Notes: generated by a model not told the origin, from the letters alone. DNA of 49,853 nt from an uncultured Bacilli bacterium (GCA_944358255.1 CALVQQ010000003.1:1-49853); one strand, 5' to 3'. Counted from the first letter of the stretch, positions 37,217 to 48,634 are shown. Numbers and translations are program-made.

Positions 37217-37253
37217 AAACTTCACCCGAGAAGTATTATATCACAAATAAAAA

Positions 37254-37571
37254 CTACTTTTCACTAATTTGTAATATATCTTTAATAGGTATAACTTTAT
37301 TATCAATTGTTAAAACACCATCGTTAGTTTTAGCAATCAAAGTTTCCTCCCTCTTTCCATCCTTCAAAGTTAGAATAACATTAACCTTATACACAAAATT
37401 AGAAGAATTAAAAATATCATTTATCTTTTTTTGAACCAATAAATTATTAACAGCACTAGAACTATCTAACGTTTTAGAAACACTTTTACCCTTTTTAGAA
37501 TAAAAAACTTCTTCATTATTAACACTTTTGCTACTTATTTTATTAACATAAACTTTAGGCAGTTTATTCAT
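37254..37571 (-). CDS. Hypothetical small protein
   Basis: 105 aa from ATG 37571 (AGGTGA RBS). The C-terminal half is beta-rich (VYKVNVILTLKDGKREETLIAKTNDGVLTIDNKVIPIKDILQI). No family recognised. Confidence 0.5.
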   Translation of the reverse strand: MNKLPKVYVNKISSKSVNNEEVFYSKKGKSVSKTLDSSSAVNNLLVQKKINDIFNSSNFVYKVNVILTLKDGKREETLIAKTNDGVLTIDNKVIPIKDILQISEK

Positions 37572-37646
37572 ATCAATCACCTATGTTATTTTATGAAAAA
37601 CATAAAAAATAGTTCTAAATAACACAAACATGTAAATACTAATACT

Positions 37647-38774
37647 ATGAAAACAAAAAATTACAACATACTAATAATAACATGTTTTTTATTTATGATT
37701 AGTATAGGTATACTATCTATTTATAGTGCTTCAGTACTCATTGGCACTTCTTACAGTAATCTATACATAAAACAAATAACATCAATAATAACTGGAATTA
37801 TAATAATGATATTTCTAATAATAATTGGAAACGAAAAAATACTAAAATATTCTAAAGTAGCTTATATAACGTCAATATTTTTATTAACAATAACGTTATT
37901 CATAGGAAAAGAAATAAACGGATCAAAATGTTGGCTTACACTAGGAGGAATAACATTCCAACCTTCAGAATTTATGAAAATCTCATTAATATTATTACTA
38001 AGCGAAATAATAGAAAAATATCATTTTAAAAACAAAAGAAACATAAAAGAAGAATTAAAACTAATTATAACAACACTGATAATAACTTTAATACCATCAT
38101 TTCTAGTATTCATAGAGCCAGACACCGGTTCAGTAATAATGTACATTTTAATATGGTTAACACTATTATTCATAAGTCCACTTAGAAACAGATGGATTAT
38201 AATACTAATAACATTCATAACATTACTTTTTTCATCATTCATACTGACATACATATTTTATCCAGACATACTCATAAAAATATTTAGTAGTTCAATTTTT
38301 TACAGAATTGATAGAATATTAAATTGGCAAATAAGTGAAGGAATGCAATTAGAAAACAGTTTAATAGCTATTGGTACCGGTGGATTTAAAGGAACAGGAT
38401 TAACAAATACACCTATTTACATTCCAGAAGCATACTCAGACTTTATATTTCCAATATACGCGAACAACTTCGGACTTATAGGAGTAGCAACACTAATAAG
38501 TATAATAATAATATTTAATCTAATCAGTATAAACAAAATAATAAACACATCAAAAACAGTTGAAAAATATTTAATAACCGGCGTTATAATAACACTAATA
38601 TTTAGTCAAATACAAAACATAGGAATGACACTAGGACTATTACCAATAATGGGAATACCCTTACCATACATTAGTTACGGAGGAAGCAGCATAATAACTT
38701 ATACAATATTTATAGCATTCATAATAAATACAAACCGAAAAAAAAGTCATACTTTGTCTAAACAATTGAAGTAA
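37647..38774 (+). CDS. FtsW/RodA/SpoVE-family peptidoglycan glycosyltransferase (SEDS)
   Basis: 375 aa, about 10 TM segments. SEDS blocks QPSEFMKISLILLL, EPDTGS, LPYISYGGSS. Confidence 0.9.
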   Translation: MKTKNYNILIITCFLFMISIGILSIYSASVLIGTSYSNLYIKQITSIITGIIIMIFLIIIGNEKILKYSKVAYITSIFLLTITLFIGKEINGSKCWLTLGGITFQPSEFMKISLILLLSEIIEKYHFKNKRNIKEELKLIITTLIITLIPSFLVFIEPDTGSVIMYILIWLTLLFISPLRNRWIIILITFITLLFSSFILTYIFYPDILIKIFSSSIFYRIDRILNWQISEGMQLENSLIAIGTGGFKGTGLTNTPIYIPEAYSDFIFPIYANNFGLIGVATLISIIIIFNLISINKIINTSKTVEKYLITGVIITLIFSQIQNIGMTLGLLPIMGIPLPYISYGGSSIITYTIFIAFIINTNRKKSHTLSKQLK

Positions 38775-38800
38775 AATATCTAGCGTAATATAATAAAAAC

Positions 38801-39346
38801 ATGAAAAAAATAATAACAATATCATTTGCAATATTTGCATTAATTATAATACCAATTCATTTTATAAACAAAATCAAAGAAATAGAAAAACAAAATACAA
38901 TAACTAAGTATTCATACACATACAATTACACAAGCGAAGGAATTAATTTTTATAAAACAAGTAATACAAGCACATTACTAAGTTATTACGAATGCGATGA
39001 CTGTGTATTACACAACATAAATACAAACATTTACTTCAAAGATGGTGTAACAATAATAAAAGATAATGATGCCTTAATAACATTTGACTTTGTAAACAAC
39101 AAAACACTAAACACAAAAAAATATGAAAACAAAACATACGACTACATAAAAACATACGATGACTTTTTACTCGTTATAGAAAATGACACTTTAAAGCTGA
39201 TAGATTACAAAGAAGACGACCTATTAATAATTGACAAAATAACCGAATACACCAACATCACAAGTGAATTAAAAAACAATTTATTAACAGTAAAAACAAA
39301 CAATAAAACATACAACATCAATACACTAACATACGAATTAACATAA
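38801..39346 (+). CDS. Hypothetical membrane-anchored or secreted protein
   Basis: 181 aa. N-terminal hydrophobic segment, Asn/Thr/Tyr-rich body, no recognisable motifs. Confidence 0.5.
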   Translation: MKKIITISFAIFALIIIPIHFINKIKEIEKQNTITKYSYTYNYTSEGINFYKTSNTSTLLSYYECDDCVLHNINTNIYFKDGVTIIKDNDALITFDFVNNKTLNTKKYENKTYDYIKTYDDFLLVIENDTLKLIDYKEDDLLIIDKITEYTNITSELKNNLLTVKTNNKTYNINTLTYELT

Positions 39347-39391
39347 TTTGGAAATTGACTAAATAGTCTTTTTTTTATATACTAGTTATAG

Positions 39392-39405
39392 CGAACAAAA
39401 GTTGG
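39392..39405 (+). promoter_or_regulatory. LexA (Cheo/SOS) box-like operator upstream of the Y-family polymerase gene
   Basis: CGAACAAAAGTTGG against the Gram-positive consensus CGAAC-N4-GTTCG (one core mismatch). It lies between a TATACT -10-like hexamer (39377-39382) and the ATG. Confidence 0.5.
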
Positions 39406-39413
39406 TGTTATAT

Positions 39414-40664
39414 ATGGAAGAAAGAAATATTATTTGTATTGATTTAAAAAGTTTTTTTGCTTCAGTTGAATGCGTAAATCGAGGACTAGACCCTGATACT
39501 ACCCCACTTGTAGTAACAGACATAACAAGAGGTGAAGGTGCGATTACACTAGCAGTAACCCCATATTTAAAAAAAATGGGAGTAAAATCAAGAGGCCGAA
39601 TTTTTGAATTGCCAAAAAACATAAAAATCATATATGCAAAACCAAGAATGAAACTATACCTAGAAAAAAGCAAAGAAATAATTGAAATATATTTAAACTA
39701 TGTAAGTAAAGATGACATGCACATTTATTCAATTGACGAAGTATTTTTAGATGTAACAGATTATTTAAAACTTTATAAAATGACAGATTACGAACTAGCA
39801 CTAAAAATAAAAGAAGATATATTTAATAAAACCAAAATAAAAAGTAGCGCTGGAATAGGACCAAATCTATTTTTGGCAAAAGTCGCAATGGATGTGGAAT
39901 CAAAACACAATGAAAACGGAATAGCAAAATGGACAAAAGAGGATATAAAAACTAAATTATGGAATATAACTCCACTTGATAAAGTATGGTCTATAGGGAC
40001 GAAAACAATGAAAAAATTAAATTCATTAGGCATATATAAACTTGGAGATATTAATAAATATGATATAAATTTTTACAAAAAAAGATTTGGTATTTTAGGA
40101 GAAGATTTATATTTACACGCGAATGGTATTTATTTCAGTAAAATAAGTGAAAAAGAAGAAATAAAAAATAAAAGTTATGGAATAAGTCAAATACTATACA
40201 AAGACTACAACATAGAAACAACAAAACTAATTATAAAAGAAATGTGTTCTAAAATAGCAAAACGTTTAAGAGAAAACAAAAAAAATTGTATGTTATTATC
40301 ATTTGGAATATCATATTCAAGGGTTATAGGAGGTGGTTTCCACCATTCAAAAAAACTTGACAGCGAAACAGATGATGAAGAAACACTATACAAAATATGT
40401 ATAAGCATATATGAAAACTATGTAGAAGATTTACCAATAAGAAAAATATCAATTGCAGTTGGAAAAATTTCAGACAAGTTATATAAACAACTAAACCTAT
40501 TTGAAGAAAACGAAAAACAAGAAAATAACGAAAAACTTATAAAAGGATTAGACGAAATTGCAAAAAGATTTGGTGACAATGCAGTTTTAAGAGCATCAAG
40601 TTTATTAGATTATTCAACTATTAAGAAGAGAAATAACACTTTAGCTGGGCATAATAAAGAATAA
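39414..40664 (+). CDS. Y-family DNA polymerase (UvrX/YqjW/ImpB-type translesion polymerase)
   Basis: IICIDLKSFFASVECV N-terminal catalytic motif and SIDEVFLDVT. About 416 aa from ATG 39414 (the ORF track starts at TTG 39402). Confidence 0.9.
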   Translation: MEERNIICIDLKSFFASVECVNRGLDPDTTPLVVTDITRGEGAITLAVTPYLKKMGVKSRGRIFELPKNIKIIYAKPRMKLYLEKSKEIIEIYLNYVSKDDMHIYSIDEVFLDVTDYLKLYKMTDYELALKIKEDIFNKTKIKSSAGIGPNLFLAKVAMDVESKHNENGIAKWTKEDIKTKLWNITPLDKVWSIGTKTMKKLNSLGIYKLGDINKYDINFYKKRFGILGEDLYLHANGIYFSKISEKEEIKNKSYGISQILYKDYNIETTKLIIKEMCSKIAKRLRENKKNCMLLSFGISYSRVIGGGFHHSKKLDSETDDEETLYKICISIYENYVEDLPIRKISIAVGKISDKLYKQLNLFEENEKQENNEKLIKGLDEIAKRFGDNAVLRASSLLDYSTIKKRNNTLAGHNKE

Positions 40665-40673
40665 GGTGATCTT

Positions 40674-40979
40674 ATGCGCAAAATGATTAAATGGAAGCCA
40701 TTTAACACAATTCCTGAAATGAGTAAAATAATAGATGAAATTGAAGAAAAGAAAACAAAACAACCTCTTCCAATAATGATGCAAGATTTAACAGAAAGCA
40801 TAAATTACAATATAAAGGAAGCAATACACGATAACAAAAAAATTGAAATAAAATATTTTAAACAAGGATTTTTAAAATACGAACACGGATATATAGAAAA
40901 AATTGATACAAACAAAAAATATATCTTAATAAACAATACAAAGATATATTTTAAATACATTATTAATGCAAAGATTTAA
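40674..40979 (+). CDS. YolD-like protein (accessory partner of UvrX/YqjW-type polymerases)
   Basis: 101 aa. WKPFNTIPE motif and size are typical of YolD-like proteins. It follows the Y-family polymerase gene by 9 nt. RBS AAGGTGA. Confidence 0.62.
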   Translation: MRKMIKWKPFNTIPEMSKIIDEIEEKKTKQPLPIMMQDLTESINYNIKEAIHDNKKIEIKYFKQGFLKYEHGYIEKIDTNKKYILINNTKIYFKYIINAKI

Positions 40980-41415
40980 AAGATCTAGAAAATCCAATAT
41001 CTGATCTTAAATCATCTATAGACAAACCATGGGGAAATTTAATACTTTTCCACTTATTATATTCATCACTATTCCAAATTTCAGCATAATCTCTCATACC
41101 CGTCCAAGTCATTACCGGAGTAACACTATTTTCCCTTATAAAACTTGTAGGCAATACAATTCTCCTTTGAGCATCCATTTTACAAGAAAATGTAGACGAA
41201 TAAATACCTCTCCCATAATTTTCACGAAGTTGATCCGATTTACCACTTAAAAAACTTTCAACCAAAATTTCAAAATTTTCTGGAGTACTAACTAATATAA
41301 ACTCTTTTAAATTTGTTAAAAACAAAATCTTAGACTTAAATTCACTAGCAAAAGCACTAGGAACAAATAATCTGTTTTTTGAATCTAATCTACTATCATA
41401 TTTTCCTAATAACAC
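40963..41415 (-). CDS. mraZ: MraZ-family transcriptional regulator (stand-alone)
   Basis: 150 aa with the two MraZ repeats LDSKNRLFVPSAF and MDAQRRIVLPTSF, then YAEIWNSDEYNKW. GTG start 7 nt after GGAGG. Confidence 0.8.
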   Translation of the reverse strand: MLLGKYDSRLDSKNRLFVPSAFASEFKSKILFLTNLKEFILVSTPENFEILVESFLSGKSDQLRENYGRGIYSSTFSCKMDAQRRIVLPTSFIRENSVTPVMTWTGMRDYAEIWNSDEYNKWKSIKFPHGLSIDDLRSDIGFSRSFKSLH

Positions 41416-41439
41416 AACAAAACCTCCTCATGAATCAAA

Positions 41440-41468
41440 ATTATACCATAATTCATTAAATATGTCAA
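41440..41468 (-). promoter_or_regulatory. Consensus promoter for mraZ
   Basis: Minus strand TTGACA - 17 nt - TGGTATAAT. Confidence 0.6.
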
Positions 41469-41492
41469 AAAGTGTAAACTAAAAAAAATATC

Positions 41493-41521
41493 TTGCATTA
41501 TATAAAAATACAAAATATAAT
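41493..41521 (+). promoter_or_regulatory. Promoter for the lipoprotein gene
   Basis: TTGCAT - 17 nt - TATAAT. Confidence 0.6.
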
Positions 41522-41557
41522 TACATTGAAAGCATATTAGGTAAAGGAGGATAAAAA

Positions 41558-42016
41558 ATGAAAAAATATCTAATAATCTTACTAACTTTTGGAATGTTTT
41601 TTGTAACTGGATGTGGAAATAGTTCTGGAACACTAACTTGCACAAAAACAGAAATGAGCGAAGATGGGTATAGTACCAATACTACTATGGTGGTAACTTA
41701 TGCAGACAAAATAGTTACTAAAGTCGAACAAACTAGTATCGAAGAAATGGAAGCAGATTTTGTTGATACATCTATTTATTTTAGTCAATTACTAGCAGAA
41801 TCATTAAATGAAATAGACGGTTATAATATAACATTTGAAAAAGAAAATGACATGGCTGTTAGAATTGTAACTACAATTGATTATACTATATTAGATAGTG
41901 AAAAAATAAAAGAAACATTTGGAAGTTCATACAAAGAAGACGCTTTATACTCACTTTCAAACATCACTATAGAAGATTTTAAAGAAACTCAACTAGACGG
42001 ATATACTTGCAAATAA
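41558..42016 (+). CDS. Lipoprotein (YehR/DUF1307-like size and layout)
   Basis: 152 aa. Signal peptide with lipobox FFVTGC. RBS AAAGGAGG. Confidence 0.8.
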   Translation: MKKYLIILLTFGMFFVTGCGNSSGTLTCTKTEMSEDGYSTNTTMVVTYADKIVTKVEQTSIEEMEADFVDTSIYFSQLLAESLNEIDGYNITFEKENDMAVRIVTTIDYTILDSEKIKETFGSSYKEDALYSLSNITIEDFKETQLDGYTCK

Positions 42017-42022
42017 AAATTT

Positions 42023-42047
42023 AAACGACTTAACAAAAGTCGTTTTT
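42023..42047 (+). terminator. Intrinsic terminator after the lipoprotein gene
   Basis: AAACGACTT-aacaa-AAGTCGTTT followed by TT. Confidence 0.7.
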
Positions 42048-42092
42048 ATGTGCTTAAAAATATATTTATATTTAAACTAATATCAAGATAAA

Positions 42093-42186
42093 TTTAAGTA
42101 ATTTTTAAGTAATTTGAAACATTCAACAATGAAAAAAGCCCATAAACACGGGCTTTGCGGTCATTTTGGTGGAGAATGTGGGACTT
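42093..42186. repeat. Left 94-bp direct repeat (att site, displaced copy of the tRNA-Ala 3' end plus its downstream flank)
   Basis: Base-for-base identical to 45581-45674 (checked by eye over all 94 nt). Contains the last 20 nt of tRNA-Ala (TGGTGGAGAATGTGGGACTT on the + strand) and a copy of its terminator hairpin. Confidence 0.88.
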
Positions 42187-42294
42187 CCCAAAATATGTTT
42201 TATTTCATTCTTTTACCTATTTTACCGTACTTCTTCTTACTTTATATTACTAATTTTTACTACATTTAACTTAAATTTAAGTAATTTTTAAGTA

Positions 42295-43212
42295 ATGAAA
42301 AACAACGAAAATAAACATATTGTTTGTCGCACTATCCAGTGCGACAACAATTTACTTGATAGTAAGCACATAACTCCGACAAATAAAAAGCTTTACAATA
42401 TAAAATTAGTAGAATGTGGCGATTATATACAAATATATTTTTATAATAGTAAAAAACTTAAAAGTGTAAAAGAAAATGATGAATTTAACTTAATCAAAAA
42501 AAATATTAGTAATAATTGTGAAAATAATGATAATAATAAAATCTTTTTAAACGATGAAAACAATTCAATAGATAAGAACATTGAAATGCGAAGTATTATA
42601 AGAAGTAAATTACAATGTCAAAGAATTGCTAAAACAAACATGAAAGAGTGGAAATCATTTATAACATTAACATTTGGCGATAATATTACTAACGTAAAAC
42701 TTGCAAATAAACAATTTCAATATTATAGAGATAAAGTTAAACGAGTAAAAAAAGATTTTAAATATTTATGCATCCCTGAATTTCAAAAACGTGGAGCAGT
42801 TCATTACCATTTATTAACTAATATTCCTTGTAATAGTAATTTAATACCAAAAAGAATTTTAAAAAATTTATATAATCCCATAAATAATACATGGAAAAAA
42901 TTAAACTATTATGATTTAAAATACTGGAACAATGGATTTTCAAGCGCCGAGATTATTACTGGAGAAGTAAAAAAAATTATAGGTTATATTGCAAAATACA
43001 TGACCAAAAATATTGATAATCGCCTATTTAATCATCATAGATATTTTTATAGTCAAAATTTACAAAAACCAAAGGAAAGTTTTATAAATATAGATAAAAA
43101 AATTGAAAAAGAATATTTAACAAAAAAACTTAAAAATAAAACTATTATATATGAAAATGACTATTTAAACCCACTCACAAATGAAATTATAAATTTTCAA
43201 GAATTAATATAA
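42295..43212 (+). CDS. rep: HUH-superfamily rolling-circle replication initiator (Rep), two-tyrosine type
   Basis: 305 aa. Motif I FITLTF (res 122-127), motif II HUH = AVHYHLL (res 168-174), motif III GYIAKYMTK (res 230-238; compare phiX174 gpA YVAKYVNK). No Shine-Dalgarno sequence. The ATG is embedded in the TTAAGTAAT repeat. Confidence 0.78.
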   Translation: MKNNENKHIVCRTIQCDNNLLDSKHITPTNKKLYNIKLVECGDYIQIYFYNSKKLKSVKENDEFNLIKKNISNNCENNDNNKIFLNDENNSIDKNIEMRSIIRSKLQCQRIAKTNMKEWKSFITLTFGDNITNVKLANKQFQYYRDKVKRVKKDFKYLCIPEFQKRGAVHYHLLTNIPCNSNLIPKRILKNLYNPINNTWKKLNYYDLKYWNNGFSSAEIITGEVKKIIGYIAKYMTKNIDNRLFNHHRYFYSQNLQKPKESFINIDKKIEKEYLTKKLKNKTIIYENDYLNPLTNEIINFQELI

Positions 43213-43671
43213 CTATTTTTCATCATTTCTAAAAAGATAATAAATGAAAGCTAAATTAATAATTCCTCTATCATATAAACCTAAACATTTATAGAAAATT
43301 GAAAAAGCTTCTAATTCCCCTATTTTATTTTGTTTGTAATCATCTACAACTTTATTTAAATCTATTTCATTTTTAGAATTACAATATCTTTTATATAATT
43401 TTTCACTTGAACCTAAAAATTCAAAATCTTGCAAATTATTAAGTAATTCAACATCAAAACCTTCATAATTACAAGCTTTTAATAATTTTACAATTGATAT
43501 ATCAAGAGTTTCACTAAGATTAAATAGTATAAATAGATTAGGTTTTTGCACTTCTCCACTCTCTATTCTTGATATAAGAGAATTGTCTACATTTATTTTT
43601 TTTGCAAGTTCTCTTTGTGAAATATTTAATTTATTTCTTTTTTCTTTTATTAAATCGCTTAAATTATTCAT
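43213..43671 (-). CDS. XRE-family HTH repressor (cI-like) with an uncharacterised C-terminal domain
   Basis: 152 aa. N-terminal LNISQRELAKKINVDNSLISRIESGEV helix-turn-helix. Divergent from the xis-like gene. Its stop codon abuts the rep stop codon with 0 nt between them. Confidence 0.85.
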   Translation of the reverse strand: MNNLSDLIKEKRNKLNISQRELAKKINVDNSLISRIESGEVQKPNLFILFNLSETLDISIVKLLKACNYEGFDVELLNNLQDFEFLGSSEKLYKRYCNSKNEIDLNKVVDDYKQNKIGELEAFSIFYKCLGLYDRGIINLAFIYYLFRNDEK

Positions 43672-43696
43672 AATTATTACCTACTTACTAAATAAA

Positions 43697-43725
43697 ATAA
43701 TATCATAAAAACTACGTATAATCAA
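43697..43725 (-). promoter_or_regulatory. Promoter of the XRE repressor gene
   Basis: Minus strand TTGATT - 17 nt - TGATATTAT (extended -10). Confidence 0.5.
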
Positions 43726-43741
43726 ACTAATAATAAAAGTG

Positions 43742-43770
43742 TTGACACATTCAACAAACAATGATATATT
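43742..43770 (+). promoter_or_regulatory. Rightward promoter (xis-like/orf79/int) with operator-like repeats
   Basis: TTGACA - 17 nt - TATATT. TTCAACAA (43750-43757) and its inverse TTGTTGAA (43775-43782) bracket the -10. A third ATTCAACA lies at 43785-43792. Confidence 0.55.
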
Positions 43771-43810
43771 TATCTTGTTGAAGAATTCAACAGAAAGGAG
43801 AAGTAATTAT

Positions 43811-44074
43811 ATGAATTATCAAGAATTATTTAATTTAATATCAAAGCCATGGGCAAGCGTAAAAGACATAAAAAAAATTGCTAATTGTGGTAGAGATAGA
43901 GCATCTAAAATTAGAGATACTATTATTCTAGATATTATTAATAATGGCAAAAACATACCTATTGCACGAGAAAAGATTGTACCTATGGAAAATGTTATAA
44001 GCTATTTAAATCTAAATTTAGATTATATTTTTACAATGGCTCAAAAAGAAAAGCTAATACAAGTTTGTAAATAG
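43811..44074 (+). CDS. Small DNA-binding protein, excisionase/DUF3173-like
   Basis: 87 aa from ATG 43811 (RBS AAAGGAG, 9-nt spacing). The layout ...DIKKIANCGRDRASKIRDTI...KIVPMENVISYL resembles the small Xis-type proteins found upstream of tyrosine integrases in Firmicute integrative elements. The assignment is by resemblance only. Confidence 0.45.
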   Translation: MNYQELFNLISKPWASVKDIKKIANCGRDRASKIRDTIILDIINNGKNIPIAREKIVPMENVISYLNLNLDYIFTMAQKEKLIQVCK

Positions 44075-44220
44075 GCAATTGGAATATCGCACCCGCTACA
44101 TAAGTATGCGGGGAGAATATGCCGAGAAAACTATTTACAAACAATACACAATTATAATGGTATTGCAAAAATGAAATTAGAATAATTCATTTTTGTTATA
44201 TATCATGGAAAGGACACGTT

Positions 44221-44460
44221 ATGAAAAATACAAACAATATACAAGTCACAAATCTAAATATTGAAGAAATTAATCTTTATGTAATAAATGAATTATTGAA
44301 TAGCATATCTTATTTAGAAATTCCACTAAACTTTAAAAATACATTAGATAATCTTATTTTTGACATAGAAAATTATCTTTTTCCACTTCCTAATTCATTA
44401 AGACAAAAAGATGCCTATAATCAAAAATGGACTGTTACAACATTTTTTTCTAACAAATAA
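44221..44460 (+). CDS. Hypothetical protein (orf79), the only candidate cargo of the element
   Basis: 79 aa. RBS GGAAAGGA 7 nt upstream. Its stop lies 7 nt before the int ATG. No recognisable motif. Confidence 0.4.
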   Translation: MKNTNNIQVTNLNIEEINLYVINELLNSISYLEIPLNFKNTLDNLIFDIENYLFPLPNSLRQKDAYNQKWTVTTFFSNK

Positions 44461-44467
44461 TAGGTGT

Positions 44468-45553
44468 ATGGCTGTATATAAAAACAAAAATACGTGGTTT
44501 TTCCGTACTTATGTTACTGATAATTTAGGACATAGAAAACAAATATATAAAAGCGGTTTTGCATCAAAATCTATTGCAAAATTGGAAGAACAGCAATATA
44601 TTTTACAATATAAAAAAATAGTTGGAGAAAATATCTTATTTAGTGATTTATACGAACAATATAAAACATTTAAAAGTCAAACTATTAAACCGCAGTCTTT
44701 TATAACTATTTGTAATAAAATTGAAAATCATATTTTGCCCTATTTTAAAGATTATAAAATAAAAGAAATAAATCATATAGTATATATAAATTGGAAAAAA
44801 TACATTTTACAAAAAAAATATTCTTTTAAATATATGTCTAGTTTACATATTTGTATGGTTAACATCTTGAATTATGCTATGCAATATTTTGGATTAGAAA
44901 ATAATGTGGCAAGTAAAACTGGAAATTTTATTAATATAAATGCTATAAAAAAATATGACTATTGGACTTTTGAAGAATTTTACACATTTATAAATAAAGT
45001 TAATGAAATAGAATATAAAGTTTTATTTCGTGTACTATTTTTTACTGGCATGAGATTAGGAGAATGTTTAGCACTTAATTGGGAAGATATCAAAAGCGAT
45101 TATATAAGTATTAATAAAACTATCGCACAAAAAGTAAGAACTAATGGAAACTATATAGTTACTACACCAAAATCACTATCTTCAAATAGAGTTATCAAAT
45201 TAGACAAAGAAACAATTTATAATTTAAATTTATTAAAAAGATTTTATAGTCAATTTATAGGCTTTAATAATAACTGGTATATCTTTGGTGGTATTAAGCC
45301 ACTAGCAACAACAACTATTTCAAGAAAAAAAAATTACTATTGTGATTTAGCAAAAGTAAAAAGAATAAAAATACACGAATTTAGACATAGTCATGCAAGT
45401 TTATTAATATCAAAAGGAATACCAATTACCATGATAAGCGCTAGATTAGGACATAGAGATGTATCAATGACATTAAAAGTTTATTCTCATTTAATACCAC
45501 ATGATGAAGAAAAAATTATCAACTTAATTAATCAAGTTGAAGAAAGGAATTAA
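44468..45553 (+). CDS. int: Tyrosine recombinase / phage-type integrase
   Basis: 361 aa from ATG 44468 (RBS AGGTG). Catalytic residues FTGMRLGE (R), HEFRHSHAS (H-x-x-R-H), GHRDVSMTLKVYSHL (H...Y). N-terminal AVYKNKNTWFFRTY is an arm-binding-type domain. Confidence 0.92.
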   Translation: MAVYKNKNTWFFRTYVTDNLGHRKQIYKSGFASKSIAKLEEQQYILQYKKIVGENILFSDLYEQYKTFKSQTIKPQSFITICNKIENHILPYFKDYKIKEINHIVYINWKKYILQKKYSFKYMSSLHICMVNILNYAMQYFGLENNVASKTGNFININAIKKYDYWTFEEFYTFINKVNEIEYKVLFRVLFFTGMRLGECLALNWEDIKSDYISINKTIAQKVRTNGNYIVTTPKSLSSNRVIKLDKETIYNLNLLKRFYSQFIGFNNNWYIFGGIKPLATTTISRKKNYYCDLAKVKRIKIHEFRHSHASLLISKGIPITMISARLGHRDVSMTLKVYSHLIPHDEEKIINLINQVEERN

Positions 45554-45560
45554 TACTACT

Positions 45561-45603
45561 TTAAGTAATTTTAAGTAATTTTTAAGTAATTTTTAAGTAA
45601 TTT
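45561..45603 (+). repeat. Four tandem copies of TTAAGTAATT(T), 10-11-bp period, at the int-proximal end of the element
   Basis: Units at 45561-70, 45571-81, 45582-92 and 45593-603. Two more at 42094-42115 (left repeat) and two at 42277-42296 (overlapping the rep ATG). All eight are in the same orientation. Confidence 0.85.
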
Positions 45604-45674
45604 GAAACATTCAACAATGAAAAAAGCCCATAAACACGGGCTTTGCGGTCATTTTGGTGGAGAATGTGGGACTT
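45581..45674. repeat. Right 94-bp direct repeat (att site overlapping the tRNA-Ala 3' end)
   Basis: Identical to 42093-42186. Positions 45655-45674 are the 3' 20 nt of the intact tRNA-Ala. Confidence 0.88.
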
Positions 45675-45731
45675 GAACCCGCGACCCCCTGCGTGCAAGG
45701 CAGGTGCTCTAGCCAACTGAGCTAATTCCCC
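45655..45731 (-). tRNA. tRNA-Ala (anticodon TGC), CCA encoded
   Basis: Minus strand GGGGAAT-TA-GCTC-AGTTGGCTA-GAGC-A-CCTGC-CTTGCAC-GCAGG-GGGTC-GCGGG-TTCAAGT-CCCAC-ATTCTCC-A-CCA. It has the G3:U70 Ala identity pair. A terminator hairpin (AAAGCCC-GTGTTTAT-GGGCTTT + T-run) lies downstream. Confidence 0.92.
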
Positions 45732-45767
45732 AAAATGGTAGGCACTTGATATTAATCAAGCATAAAG

Positions 45768-45797
45768 AGTGTATCATATTATAAACGAGTATGTCAA
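45768..45797 (-). promoter_or_regulatory. Promoter for tRNA-Ala
   Basis: Minus strand TTGACA (overlapping the yvcK stop codon) - 18 nt - TGATACACT (extended -10). Confidence 0.45.
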
Positions 45798-46744
45798 GAC
45801 TTTTCTGAAAGTAAATAAGAAAAAATAGCCATACTTAATTTTAAAGAATCATGCCTAATCATATTATTTTGAAGTTGAAAAAAGTTAGAGGCTATAACCT
45901 TAGTATCAGTTAAATTTTCAAAATCAACAATCACTTGATCCTTTTGTTCCTCATTAGCATATTTATCAAGCAATTTCTTAGGAATATTTTTATTATTAAC
46001 CAAAACAGTATGAATTTTTTTTGTACCCAAATAACTATTCAGCAAACTAACATGATCACTAACTTTAAAACCATCAGTCTCACCAGGCTGTGTCATCATA
46101 TTGCAGACGTAAATAATATTAGCATTAGACTTATCAATTTCATCTATTACACTTTTACATATTAAATTAGGAACAATACTTGTAAAAACACTACCCATGC
46201 TTAATATTATTAAATTTGCCTCTCTAATAGCTTTAAGAGCCAAAGAATTTATCTCAGGTGTATCCTTATAAAAAACCTCTTTTATTTTCTTATCACTTTC
46301 AGTAATATTATGTTCTCCCTCAATAATAGAATCATCTTCCATTCTACCCATCAAAGTCACATTATCTTCCGTCAACGGAACTACTTTTCCTCTTAAATTA
46401 AGAACTTTTGACAAAGCTTCTACTCCGTCACTCATATTACCGGTTATATTTGAAGCAGCAGTTAAAAGCAAATTTCCAACAGTATGTCCATTCAAATCAC
46501 TCGTAGTATTAAACCTATAATTAAGCAATTTTTCCACCAAAGGCTCAGTTTCTGACAAAGCAACTAAAACCTGTCTAACATCGCCAACCGCAGGAATATT
46601 AAACTCATCTCTCAATCTACCAGTACTTCTACCATCATCACTTACAGAAACAATCGCAGTAATATCAACCGGAAACATTTTTAATCCTTTTAACAAAGTA
46701 GAAAGTCCAGTACCCCCGCCTAAAACAACAACTTTTTTATTCAT
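45794..46744 (-). CDS. yvcK: YvcK/GlmR family gluconeogenesis/cell-shape factor (CofD-like)
   Basis: 316 aa. N-terminal VVVLGGGTGLSTLLKGLK and family-typical blocks (SVSDDGRSTG, GPGSxxTS-like MGSVFTSIVPNL). Confidence 0.9.
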   Translation of the reverse strand: MNKKVVVLGGGTGLSTLLKGLKMFPVDITAIVSVSDDGRSTGRLRDEFNIPAVGDVRQVLVALSETEPLVEKLLNYRFNTTSDLNGHTVGNLLLTAASNITGNMSDGVEALSKVLNLRGKVVPLTEDNVTLMGRMEDDSIIEGEHNITESDKKIKEVFYKDTPEINSLALKAIREANLIILSMGSVFTSIVPNLICKSVIDEIDKSNANIIYVCNMMTQPGETDGFKVSDHVSLLNSYLGTKKIHTVLVNNKNIPKKLLDKYANEEQKDQVIVDFENLTDTKVIASNFFQLQNNMIRHDSLKLSMAIFSYLLSEKS

Positions 46745-46752
46745 AAATCCCC

Positions 46753-47700
46753 CTATTTAACATAATATTCATAATATTCATCAAAAGTCAGACCCTTATC
46801 ATGAATTTGAAGTGCCGCATTTCTTCCAACATATCTAAATCTCCAATTATTAGCTTCAAATCCAGTAATATCCTCTTTACCCTCTTCATATCTTAAAATA
46901 AAACCATACTTATAAGCATTACTCATCAACCACTCATGTTCAGCACTCATTGTAACATCCTCTACCTTTTTATTATAAGGTTCAATATCAACCCCAAGAC
47001 CAGTTTGATATTCAGAATGTCCAGGTCTAGCCACAAATTCATCTGCCTCACTAGTACTATAAGAACTCTTATAATTATTATATGTTTCTTCTTGGTCAGC
47101 ATAACTTCTATAACCTTGAGTAACTACCAAAGTAAAACCATCATCCCTAGCAGCATCTAATAAACCAATCAAATCATCATACATACTAGTACTAACATAT
47201 TTATTTGCATAAGCATACGTACTAGAAACCAACACAAGTTCAGGTTCATAATCACTAGGCAACCCATAAAACTTATTAACGATCATCAAATTTCCTTTAG
47301 AAACATCAGTTTCTTCGACATCTTCATACCAATCCCTATTCGCACCGACATTAACAACAGCAATAACTTTATCAATAGAAGCACCACTATTATTATTACT
47401 ATATTCCATATACTGATCTAATTTATCAAAATCAAAATATTCCTCATTTAATAATTCTATATATTTTGAATCATATTCTTTATTTAACAAAATATCCAAT
47501 TGAGAACTATCTAATTTTTCTTTTAAAACAGAAATCTCATCTAAACTATACCCTATTTGTCCAAACTTATATTCATAAGTTTCCTTTTCTTTTTTATCAT
47601 CCGCATATTTCTTAAAACCAAAAACAATAACTAAAATTATTATTAAAATTAAAACTATAGCTATAACTACTTTTTTAATATTTAACTTTTTAACAGTCAT
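46753..47700 (-). CDS. VanY/LdcB-like M15B D,D- or L,D-carboxypeptidase homologue with substituted zinc ligands
   Basis: 315 aa. N-terminal TM anchor. Family blocks QGYRSYADQ, ARPGHSEYQTGLGVD, YGFILRYEEGKEDITGFEANNWRFRYVG. The canonical SEHQTG His reads Y, and the WH(x)RYVG His reads R. Confidence 0.8.
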   Translation of the reverse strand: MTVKKLNIKKVVIAIVLILIIILVIVFGFKKYADDKKEKETYEYKFGQIGYSLDEISVLKEKLDSSQLDILLNKEYDSKYIELLNEEYFDFDKLDQYMEYSNNNSGASIDKVIAVVNVGANRDWYEDVEETDVSKGNLMIVNKFYGLPSDYEPELVLVSSTYAYANKYVSTSMYDDLIGLLDAARDDGFTLVVTQGYRSYADQEETYNNYKSSYSTSEADEFVARPGHSEYQTGLGVDIEPYNKKVEDVTMSAEHEWLMSNAYKYGFILRYEEGKEDITGFEANNWRFRYVGRNAALQIHDKGLTFDEYYEYYVK

Positions 47701-47780
47701 ATCTTATCTCCTTATGATTAATTATAGCAAATTTTCAAATTTTTAACAATATAATGTATAATTATATTGGTGATAAAATT

Positions 47781-48617
47781 ATGACAAAATTGTTAAGTGG
47801 AATTGAATGCAGAAATAAACTTAAGGAAAAATTAACAAAAAAAATAAACAAAATAAAAGAGAAAATTACCATAACTGTAATAAGTGTTGGAAATGACGAA
47901 GCAAGTAAAATTTACATTAAGAATAAAATAAAAGAATGTCAAAGTGTAAACATAGAATGTCAACATTTACATTTTGAAAAAACAACAACGAATGAATTAA
48001 TAAACCTAATTACAAAATTAAACAAAGACAAAAATATAACTGGAATACTAGTACAATTACCACTACCTAAAAACATAGAAGAAAATAAAGTTATAAACAC
48101 AATAGATTACAAAAAAGACATAGATGGATTAACAAAATCAAACATTGCAAAACTTTATTCAAATCAAAAAGGAATTATTCCATGCACTGCAAAAGGAATC
48201 ATAGATTTATTAGAATATAATAAAATAGAGATAGAAGGGAAAAATATCACAATAATCGGAAGAAGCAACTTAGTTGGAAAACCATTAACTTTAGCACTAT
48301 TAAACAAAAACGCTACAGTTACTACATGCCATTCAAAAACAAAAGATTTAAAAAAACACACAAAAAAGGCGGATATAATTATTGTAGCAGTTGGCAAACC
48401 CAATTTAATTAAAAAAGAAATGATTTCAAAAAATAGTATAATAATAGACGTCGGAATTAATAGAATAAACGGAAAAATTTCTGGAGATATAGATAAATCA
48501 GTTTACAAAAAATGTAAAGCTATAACACCAGTTCCAGGAGGCGTAGGACCTATGACAGTCTACGAAGTTTTATCAAATACGCTAGAATGCTACGAATTAC
48601 AAAAAAACAAGAAATAA
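47781..48617 (+). CDS. folD: Bifunctional methylenetetrahydrofolate dehydrogenase/cyclohydrolase
   Basis: 278 aa from ATG 47781 (RBS GGTGA). ILVQLPLP, GRSNLVGKP, TPVPGGVGPMT. The ORF-track ATG at 47754 lies inside a TATAAT -10 box. Confidence 0.93.
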   Translation: MTKLLSGIECRNKLKEKLTKKINKIKEKITITVISVGNDEASKIYIKNKIKECQSVNIECQHLHFEKTTTNELINLITKLNKDKNITGILVQLPLPKNIEENKVINTIDYKKDIDGLTKSNIAKLYSNQKGIIPCTAKGIIDLLEYNKIEIEGKNITIIGRSNLVGKPLTLALLNKNATVTTCHSKTKDLKKHTKKADIIIVAVGKPNLIKKEMISKNSIIIDVGINRINGKISGDIDKSVYKKCKAITPVPGGVGPMTVYEVLSNTLECYELQKNKK

Positions 48618-48634
48618 AAATTTTCTTGTCTTTT
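48608..48634. terminator. Bidirectional terminator between convergent folD and thrS
   Basis: Stem CAAGAAA/TTTCTTG (48608-48628) flanked by an A-run upstream and TCTTTT downstream. Confidence 0.6.

Follow-up and report, generated by a model that had tools for sequence, protein, structure and literature searches.

The 49,853-nt stretch of DNA analysed here (the window; all coordinates are positions in it) comes from an uncultured gut bacterium of the Bacillus class ("Tenericutes"/RF39-like) with a genome of about 25% GC (guanine plus cytosine), and it carries a small integrated element next to a gene for tRNA-Ala(UGC). Two direct repeats of 94 nt (42093-42186 and 45581-45674) are identical without a mismatch, within an alignment that stretches to 118 nt at 92% identity. 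Their spacing delimits a 3,488-bp unit with five open reading frames (ORFs): rep, for a rolling-circle replication initiator; a gene for an XRE-family repressor; ORFs for an 87-amino-acid (aa) and a 79-aa protein; and int, for a tyrosine integrase. The tRNA gene is intact (45655-45731, minus strand; Rfam score of 65.4 bits), and the right repeat copy is composed of its last 20 nt and the 74 nt downstream, including the tRNA terminator hairpin (45623-45644), which a terminator scan found duplicated at 42135-42156; int adjoins this copy. An Rfam scan of the window yielded nothing besides the tRNA. A preliminary description of this DNA had proposed the same arrangement, and its observations were reproduced: the repeat identity by alignment, the overlap of the right copy with the last 20 nt of an intact tRNA gene beside int by the agreement of ARAGORN with Rfam, and the five-ORF content devoid of capsid, packaging or transfer genes by ORF calling together with profile searches. 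The features of the unit and its borders are, from left to right:

42093-42186, no strand: attR copy of the 94-nt repeat at the host-distal junction, a duplicate of 45581-45674; present as a single copy in the empty sites of sister genomes L002-L004
42095-42116, plus strand: two TAAGTAATTT(T/G) 11-mers on the host side of attR, of which the same 2-3 copies occur in the sister-genome empty sites
42135-42156, minus strand: duplicate of the tRNA terminator hairpin (terminator scan)
42167-42186, minus strand: duplicate of the last 20 nt of tRNA-Ala, the region holding the crossover, as judged from the repeat ending 20 nt inside the tRNA, the repeats of the wider family, a secondary-site insertion and the 25-nt minimal repeat
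42187-42294, plus strand: P arm, an element-specific stretch between core and rep that is absent from empty sites, with a weak promoter-like site at 42221-42248 (promoter score 9/12)
42278-42296, plus strand: two arm-type repeats, TAAGTAATTTT and TAAGTAAT, the second overlapping the rep ATG at 42295 (repeat search; analogous repeats in L104 and L109)
42295-43212, plus strand: rep, encoding a HUH rolling-circle initiator with motifs FITLT, HYHLL and GYIAKYMTK (Y-x3-Y) (PF23343, 1.3e-18; phrog_3419)
42319-42351, plus strand: GC-rich hairpin 5' of the nick motif and within rep, the probable Rep-binding part of a double-strand origin (fold z-score -5.1)
42353-42364, plus strand: TACTTGATAGTA, with a proposed nick site CTTG/ATA in a stem-loop (invariant at the DNA level, single occurrence in the window)
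43213-43671, minus strand: XRE-family repressor with an N-terminal helix-turn-helix (HTH) and a C-terminal domain of ~85 aa without a match (HTH_3, 1.7e-15)
43672-43810, no strand: divergent control region with a predicted rightward promoter at 43742-43770 (TTGACA-17-TATATT with TG) and three TTCAACA operator-like half-sites (promoter and repeat scans)
43811-44074, plus strand: 87-aa protein, first gene of the rightward operon, a candidate excision factor or regulator of the Cro type (without a match to families, PDB sequences or folds)
44075-44220, no strand: 146-nt intergenic region with two hairpins, speculatively a lagging-strand origin or packaging signal (fold z-scores -3.4, both strands)
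44221-44460, plus strand: 79-aa ORF specific to this element lineage (no family match)
44468-45553, plus strand: int, tyrosine integrase comprising arm-binding (N-terminal), SAM-like and catalytic domains (Pfam and PHROG profiles, other assemblies)
45562-45604, plus strand: four tandem arm-type 11-mers TAAGTAATTTT directly after the int stop (P' arm; repeat search)
45581-45674, no strand: attL copy of the 94-nt repeat, by which the 3' end and terminator of the tRNA are restored; element-borne, as it follows int in L147 and L145
45655-45731, minus strand: tRNA-Ala(UGC), intact, the integration target (ARAGORN, Rfam)

The unoccupied site that the preliminary description had suggested looking for was found in three sister genomes (L002-L004), in which a neighbouring CofD/YvcK-like protein is 95% identical and a single copy of the repeat is present. 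The order at these empty sites is tRNA-Ala, terminator, two to three 11-mers and a lipoprotein gene. L003 matches window positions 37235-42186 and 45581-48619, the overlap between the two matching segments is exactly the 94-nt repeat, and 42187-45580 has no counterpart; L002 and L004 gave matches of the same kind. Within the window, a 71-nt core of the repeat has two exact occurrences against 0 expected from shuffles. The 3,488-bp unit entered the 3' end of the tRNA-Ala gene by site-specific recombination.

The length of the repeat was examined in other strains carrying the same element. In L144 and L145 the terminator that the element (about 99% identical) meets on the host side is another one, and the repeat is 25 nt; because of this, and because L147 and L145 carry the 94-nt segment after int, the segment represents the element's own arm. 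The long identity is a local accident in which this arm meets an identical host flank downstream of the tRNA. The preliminary description had regarded the 94 nt as an unusually long core site, a property of the recombination site that was ruled out by the 25-nt repeats of L144 and L145 and by repeats of 17-21 nt elsewhere in the family. Since the element arm supplies a tRNA 3' end and a terminator, the tRNA would stay functional, and the locus exemplifies how sequence downstream of a tRNA gene (here the terminator) can be supplied by a mobile element.

Two further observations concern the host side of the site. The empty tRNA-Ala sites (L002, 10088-10175; L003, 3040-3115; L004, 10088-10165; compare window 42070-42116) already hold a terminator and two to three TAAGTAATTTT repeats, features that are otherwise element-like, and the host flank at 42070-42092 resembles the P arm of the element at 42253-42275. 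Either traces of former occupants may persist at the tRNA-Ala site, or the element may have picked up sequence from the host flank; the surroundings of tRNA-Ala in 75 more distant relatives were not syntenic and gave no source for the host-side 11-mers. On the host side of attR in L145 (90-290) and L144 (730-980), a decayed terminator of the window type is followed by ~110 nt with three inverted AAGTAAT-like motifs and then by another terminator, and L144 also has a 44-nt tandem duplication. The host side of these two loci looks like layered remnants of older insertions.

Forms of the element other than the integrated one were sought among assembled contigs. The 87-aa protein is encoded unchanged on at least 23 contigs, most of which show the integrated form. 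One contig (L147; ENA ERZ16268230 scaffold_58505) reads XRE', the 87-aa gene, the 79-aa gene, int, four 11-mers, terminator, the 3' 20 nt of the tRNA, CCCAAAATATG and rep; it is free of N and carries its own terminator allele. Its int-repeat-rep order joins the ends of the same element in the attP-type junction envisaged by the preliminary description and, at the level of contigs, represents either a circle after excision or tandem copies. Divergence between strains is 0.06-0.8% in the element, 2-5% in the left and far right flanks, and less than 1% in the genes just right of the tRNA. This contrast fits recent horizontal spread, with recombination of a larger chromosomal block as the alternative. 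Variant contigs contained 42 single-nucleotide polymorphisms, and because synonymous changes outnumber non-synonymous ones in rep (14 vs 6) and in int (10 vs 2), both genes are judged to be under purifying selection. One strain (L081/L140) has a stop codon in int at 44627, and a 46-nt deletion in L144 (43577-43624) shortens the XRE protein to 112 aa.

Profile matches were judged against the curated family cut-offs of Pfam and NCBIfam. The best Pfam family for Rep was PF23343 (REP_ORF2-G2P; 67.6 bits against a cut-off of 27.8, E = 1.3e-18), and Rep also matched phrog_3419, "rolling circle DNA replication initiation", at 1.3e-27. Residues T124, L125, T126, H170, H172, Y231 and Y235 were invariant in an alignment of 16 sequences. 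The Pfam family Phage_GPA (phiX174/P2 gpA type) scored 23.6 bits, under its cut-off of 31.4; kinship of Rep with the phiX174/P2 gpA family is at superfamily level only. Of the phiX-type two-tyrosine Rep in the preliminary description, the tyrosine pair (Y231-x3-Y235) therefore stands and the phiX affiliation does not reach the family threshold. RepSA was likewise under its cut-off (29.6 bits vs 34, over a HUH stretch of ~20-22 residues), as was the NCBIfam RepSA model (13 bits vs 700). A PDB sequence search with the Rep and 87-aa profiles yielded no meaningful match. The XRE protein was clearly recognised by the generic HTH_3 family, and the RstR-family model NF041951 gave 34.9 bits, under its cut-off of 80. 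The int ORF extends over 44411-45553 on the plus strand, and the true start is probably 44468, giving a protein of 361 aa that matches calls in other assemblies. Int matched Phage_integrase (2.4e-19, 70.2 bits), Phage_int_SAM_3 (37.8 bits) and Arm-DNA-bind_4 (28.4 bits vs a cut-off of 22.3), the domain set of lambda-type integrases with arm binding. The earlier assignments of Rep, Int and the XRE repressor are all upheld by these matches.

The two small ORFs were less informative. The 87-aa protein, previously labelled Xis-like, failed every profile and fold test: no match was found in Pfam (including Xis/HTH_17), PHROGs, NCBIfam, PADLOC or PDB sequences, and comparison of its AlphaFold model (pLDDT, the predicted local distance difference test, of 88) with the PDB by Foldseek gave no significant match, the best being weak winged-helix/EF-hand look-alikes at E 0.5. 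Its homologues are confined to the XRE subfamily (L104, L109 and L125). The 79-aa ORF had no match in Pfam, PHROGs, NCBIfam or PADLOC and no homologue in the other fetched loci. Pfam and PHROGs revealed no capsid, packaging, transfer, coupling-protein or primase-helicase gene among the ORFs of the unit, and PADLOC returned generic HTH matches only, with no sign of defence cargo.

A candidate replication origin was located inside rep. The 12 bases of TACTTGATAGTA, found once in the window, occupy rep codons 20-24 and are identical in 54 of 54 rep genes, third codon positions included, for proteins that are 34-58% identical. When the adjoining T and A are included, the motif pairs into a stem of 5 bp that closes a TGAT loop. 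In 34 of 45 distinct relatives, the 50 nt upstream give a more stable fold than rep-internal controls of the same gene (median -6.2 vs -1.8 kcal/mol; GC 38% vs 24%), and the sequence of this hairpin differs between elements. In plasmids of the pC194/pUB110 family, the heptamer CTTGATA forms the core of the origin (PMC5031790). Because of the invariant motif, the usual upstream hairpin and this shared core, a double-strand origin is predicted within rep at 42319-42364, with a nick between G42358 and A42359. CTTGATA is also the origin core of phiX174, whose origin likewise lies within its initiator gene.

The layout of the recombination site was compared across the relatives of the element. The int-side 11-mers number four in all nine contigs that reach that junction. 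Matching repeats on both arms were found only in the window, L104 and L109, whose Int carries the arm-binding domain, and are absent where Int has no N-domain. The window has TAAGTAATTTT as its arm repeat, L104 and L109 have TAAGAGAA; the layout is the same, and in each of the three the rep-side copies cover the ribosome-binding site or the start codon of rep. Since no element whose Int is without an arm-binding domain has such repeats around the core, the TAAGTAATTTT repeats are probably Int arm sites, a role read from position and layout. A secondary-site insertion (L131) shares only about TGGAGC between its target and the normal tRNA site, and the crossover is therefore placed at the extreme 3' end of the tRNA. 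As a separate observation, the window has exactly three occurrences of the 11-mer ACATTCAACAA, at 43747-43757 (the -35/spacer of the rightward promoter) and in each repeat copy (42119-42129 and 45607-45617); it may be a repressor site common to promoter and att arm.

A search with Rep recovered 1,406 relatives, including 43 loci in species-representative genomes, every one in uncultured gut Bacilli. At 20 of the 43, Rep is followed by one or two small genes, by Int and, on the opposite strand, by a tRNA, with units of 2.6-3.9 kb. Family direct repeats measure 17-21 nt (67 nt in L104), each including the last 17-19 nt of the tRNA, and the targets are tRNA-Gly(UCC), tRNA-His, tRNA-Pro(UGG) and tRNA-Gly(GCC). 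Circular, tandem and relocated forms were all encountered: L125, which encodes Rep, XRE, a homologue of the 87-aa protein and Int, closes through a 77-nt terminal overlap into a 3,925-bp circle; L092 is a tandem of two 2,790-bp units, 100% identical, with three repeat copies; and one and the same element (99.9% over 3,245 nt) lies at tRNA-Gly in L128 and at a non-tRNA site in L131. The Rep sequence of this L128/L131-type relative is listed in 86 blocks of a contig collection. The secondary site in L131 (3797-4035, 5256-6647) adjoins a Mob_Pre (MobV) relaxase gene, and the insertion may lie inside another mobile element.

Two subfamilies were distinguished. The long-Int members, namely the window, L104, L109 and L125, encode an Int of ~360 aa that includes the arm-binding domain, together with XRE and the 87-aa protein; the others have a short Int (~300 aa) and a protein of ~110 aa, judged by eye to be a putative ribbon-helix-helix protein. 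Several short-Int members (L085, L087, L089, L090, L093, L098, L102 and L108) show a conserved arm between the int stop and the tRNA: one hairpin sits at the int stop, a small one precedes the tRNA end, and the arm also has an inverted repeat AGATTTAA...TTAAATCT. In the same members a long hairpin rich in GC lies 60-110 nt upstream of the nick motif; it is a candidate lagging-strand origin or packaging signal.

To place the replication module, the genes beside more distant Rep homologues were inspected. In 12 genome loci and 4 IMG/VR contigs a Rep of 34-48% identity lies beside genes for a Zot-type ATPase and/or pIII-like proteins, and most of these Zot-linked loci carry an identical TACTTGATAGTA with an upstream hairpin. 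A scan of IMG/VR with a single Rep sequence gave no match; the profile scan did recover relatives. In L127 (2179-8035), which has the complete arrangement, Rep and a Zot-type ATPase are accompanied by an XRE repressor, a coat-like protein of 60 aa, a pIII-like protein of 578 aa that bears a signal peptide, and a protein of 91 aa. A neighbour-joining tree puts the group formed by the mini-element Reps beside the phage Reps, with the Rep of L125 inside the phage-associated clade; its gene is 80% identical at the nucleotide level to the rep of L124, a member of that clade. Microvirus Reps are more distant (25-34% identity), and Geobacillus, Brevibacillus, Clostridium and Fusobacterium have free plasmids (1.5-5 kb) with homologous Reps (28-34% identity). 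No integrase related to Int was found in the Zot phages, near which the only recombinases are Xer-like, at 23-30% identity. Because Rep is phage-related while the phages are without a related integrase, the mini-elements appear to be chimeras of a phage replication module and a tRNA-targeting integration module. A simple deletion derivative of Zot prophages was rejected, since those phages have no related integrase. The preliminary description had considered a satellite or remnant of a Microviridae-like phage, and this link was also rejected: microvirus Reps are the more distant ones, and the capsid-linked relatives of Rep belong to filamentous, Zot-encoding phages with Zot-type, pIII-like and (in L127) coat-like genes.

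Complete-looking filamentous prophages were thereby noted in uncultured gut Bacilli, in L127 and also in L113, L114 and L119-L123. A gene for a Xer-like recombinase lies 4-5 kb downstream in L114, L119 and L127 and may hint at dif-type integration of these prophages.

The unit is very probably the integrated form of an episome that integrates and replicates on its own. The core of the preliminary description, a minimal tRNA-targeted element combining a tyrosine integrase, an XRE switch and a rolling-circle Rep, was borne out by the empty sites, the attP-type junction, the profiles and the non-dispersed repeat. With somewhat better than even confidence, the best overall reading is that of an active integrative rolling-circle mini-episome with a replication module derived from filamentous phage. 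According to the proposed life cycle, the XRE repressor would silence a strong rightward promoter driving the 87-aa gene, the 79-aa gene and int; the site at 43742-43770 is the best promoter in the element, faces these three genes and is divergent from XRE. On derepression Int would excise the element, and an excision factor, possibly the 87-aa protein, may help, with the arm-binding domain of Int guided by the TAAGTAATTTT repeats that flank the core. The promoter of rep itself is only weak, and the terminator that lies between int and rep in the circle is oriented for the tRNA strand. The circle would place rep directly downstream of the int operon, and circularisation would turn rep on; expression of rep is probably coupled to excision, because rep follows int in the circle and its start codon overlaps an arm repeat. 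Rep would then nick CTTG/ATA in the TACTTGATAGTA stem-loop of its own gene, driving rolling-circle replication.

Several points weigh against this reading. No excision factor was recognised by profile or fold among the ORFs of the unit, and the roles assigned to the promoter, the operators and the arm sites follow from position only. The junction in L147 could stem from tandem copies in the chromosome and not from a free circle. Assemblers can in principle be misled by a repeat of 94 nt, a concern that is countered by the repeat allele of L147 being its own. Furthermore, some copies are decaying, as seen from the int stop codon and the truncated XRE protein.

Spread between cells needs a helper, because the unit has neither transfer nor capsid genes. 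Among the possible routes the largest single share, short of an even chance, is given to a co-infecting filamentous phage that would package the single-stranded circles. This route is favoured by the origin and Rep being of phage type, by the switch resembling that of lysogeny, and by the precedents of RS1 and TLC, satellites of Vibrio cholerae. The length of filamentous virions adapts to genome size, which also counts in favour of such a helper. The more specific proposal, that the family as a whole consists of integrase-equipped filamentous-phage satellites in RF39-like gut Bacilli, reduced to a phage-type Rep with its origin inside rep and a tRNA-targeting integrase, packaged as single-stranded circles by helper inoviruses and with replication coupled to excision through the overlap of Int arm sites with the rep start, is put forward tentatively and judged somewhat less probable still. 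Several findings count against the satellite route. A sensitive blastn comparison of mini-elements with Zot prophages found similarity within rep only and no common packaging signal, the window holds no helper phage, and a mini-element coexists with a Zot prophage in just one genome among those examined (UBA5026). Free plasmids of 1.5-5 kb likewise rely on homologous Reps, and most family members have the putative ribbon-helix-helix protein instead of the XRE switch.

Other explanations were weighed against packaging by a filamentous helper. The unit might be an integrative mobilisable element, in which Rep would act as a relaxase at the same nick site and the strand would be transferred by a conjugative element resident in the host. 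Streptococcal elements of this kind do combine a tyrosine integrase with a rolling-circle-type relaxase (PHA00330, Rep_2, Rep_trans), some without a coupling protein (PMC5357655, PMC5704250), Mob-less rolling-circle plasmids are mobilisable by ICEBs1 (PMC5714925), and the relative in L131 adjoins a Mob_Pre relaxase gene. We nevertheless consider this unlikely, given that no coupling protein, accessory factor or separate origin of transfer (oriT) was found in the unit, that conjugation genes are absent from the window and from the vicinity of every family member examined, and that the nearest relatives of Rep outside the mini-elements are phage Reps, not relaxases. A similarly low probability attaches to an integrating cryptic plasmid without dedicated transfer, inherited vertically and moved by transformation, vesicles or generalised transduction. 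The free 1.5-5 kb plasmids with homologous Reps (28-34% identity) and the circular relative L125 speak for it, and the content of the element gives no pointer to a helper. It is harder to reconcile with an element that is 0.06% divergent in strains whose left flank is 2-5% divergent; the 86 contig-collection blocks and two different sites of the L128/L131-type relative also suggest frequent horizontal movement, and a lysogeny-type switch better fits an inducible, helper-timed cycle than constitutive maintenance.

The phage-type Rep, and the int stop codon or truncated XRE in some copies, could also be expected of a decaying filamentous prophage that has lost its structural genes and become immobile. 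However, the minimal layout recurs intact in more than 20 species-level genomes at four other tRNA genes, rep and int are under purifying selection, attP, circular, tandem and secondary-site forms exist, and the Zot prophages have no Int of this type, only Xer-like recombinases nearby; such a remnant is therefore held to be very improbable. Finally, a chance repeat, or a dispersed one as raised in the preliminary description, unrelated to recombination, was considered; in its favour the region is AT-rich with short tandem 11-mers. The core occurs only twice in the window, one copy is present in the empty sites, and the tRNA 3' end always forms one copy in the family, and this explanation is refuted with near certainty.

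No published description of this element family was found in the literature. Elements with an integrase and a rolling-circle Rep, and satellites of filamentous phages, are already known, and each differs from this family in a defining feature. RS1 and TLC, whose helpers are CTXphi, KSF-1phi and fs2phi, are similar in size (~3-5 kb), in having an XRE/RstR-type repressor and a filamentous-phage-type initiator, and in lacking morphogenesis genes, and they exist as integrated copies, tandem arrays and plasmid-like circles (PMC3545932). The present Rep likewise belongs to a plectrovirus/inovirus Pfam family and has relatives in Zot phages. In contrast to RS1 and TLC, which have no integrase and use host XerCD at dif, the element described here has its own tyrosine integrase acting at tRNA 3' ends; furthermore, its host is an uncultured gut member of the Bacillota, the RstR model stays under its cut-off, and helper dependence and packaging are putative. 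Streptococcal mobilisable elements (Rel_PHA00330, Rel_PF01719; Coluzzi 2017, Guedon 2017) share the tyrosine integrase, the HUH Rep-like protein, the location of some in tRNA genes and the absence of conjugation pore genes (PMC5357655, PMC5704250); the TcpA coupling protein is present in 83 of 118 streptococcal elements with a rolling-circle-type relaxase. The family described here, by contrast, measures 2.6-3.9 kb and has neither coupling protein nor cargo. Streptococcal mobilisable elements tend to be larger and to bear cargo.

The pSAM2-type elements of actinomycetes also place Int (with Xis) at a tRNA 3' end and use a rolling-circle initiator for the excised circle (PMC2440964). pSAM2 differs in size (10.9 kb), in its FtsK-like transfer and spread genes and in the phylum of its host, and a pSAM2-type identity was rejected given the RepSA score (29.6 vs 34 bits) and the lack of a transfer gene. 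Small plasmids of Geobacillus (NC_022994; 1.5 kb, 'Rep5'), Brevibacillus (NC_004938; 1.8 kb) and Fusobacterium (NC_003091; 5 kb) are similarly tiny replicons with a Rep homologous over 57-87% of its length, but by record annotation, on which this comparison is based, they are free replicons. The inovirus/plectrovirus-like prophages and viral contigs (L112-L127; IMG/VR L148-L150) share a homologous Rep (34-48%) and mostly an identical TACTTGATAGTA with the upstream hairpin; unlike the mini-elements, which are without structural genes, they carry Zot-type ATPase and/or pIII-like genes and no tRNA-targeting Int. The PICMIs (chromosomal minimalist islands inducible by phage) of the Vibrionaceae resemble the unit as minimalist integrated satellites without capsid-remodelling genes and differ as satellites of virulent phages of marine Vibrionaceae (PMC10803314). 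A satellite of the PICI (phage-inducible chromosomal island) or PICMI type was rejected, as the unit has no primase-helicase, packaging or capsid-redirection genes and is only 3.5 kb. PICMIs are about 5-6 kb, have no HUH Rep and depend on tailed helpers.

If the reading as a mini-episome holds, the family is among the smallest elements able to integrate and replicate alone, some members having just three genes. If the satellite reading is true, they would be the smallest self-integrating satellites and, to our knowledge, the first filamentous-phage satellites outside Vibrio. The family connects small rolling-circle plasmids, filamentous phages and integrative islands, offering a system for how satellites and integrative plasmids arise from phage replication modules. 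It is common in human and animal gut metagenomes, where its hosts are an uncultured lineage with reduced genomes in which mobile elements are almost unknown, and it explains many ~3-kb contigs that end at tRNA fragments. The compact parts, an Int with a tRNA core of ~25 nt and a Rep with a 12-nt nick motif and hairpin, could seed genetic tools.

Beyond the element, the part of the window left of the lipoprotein gene (39402-41415) contains a Y-family DNA polymerase gene with IMS domains followed by a YolD-like gene, and a lone MraZ-like gene on the opposite strand.

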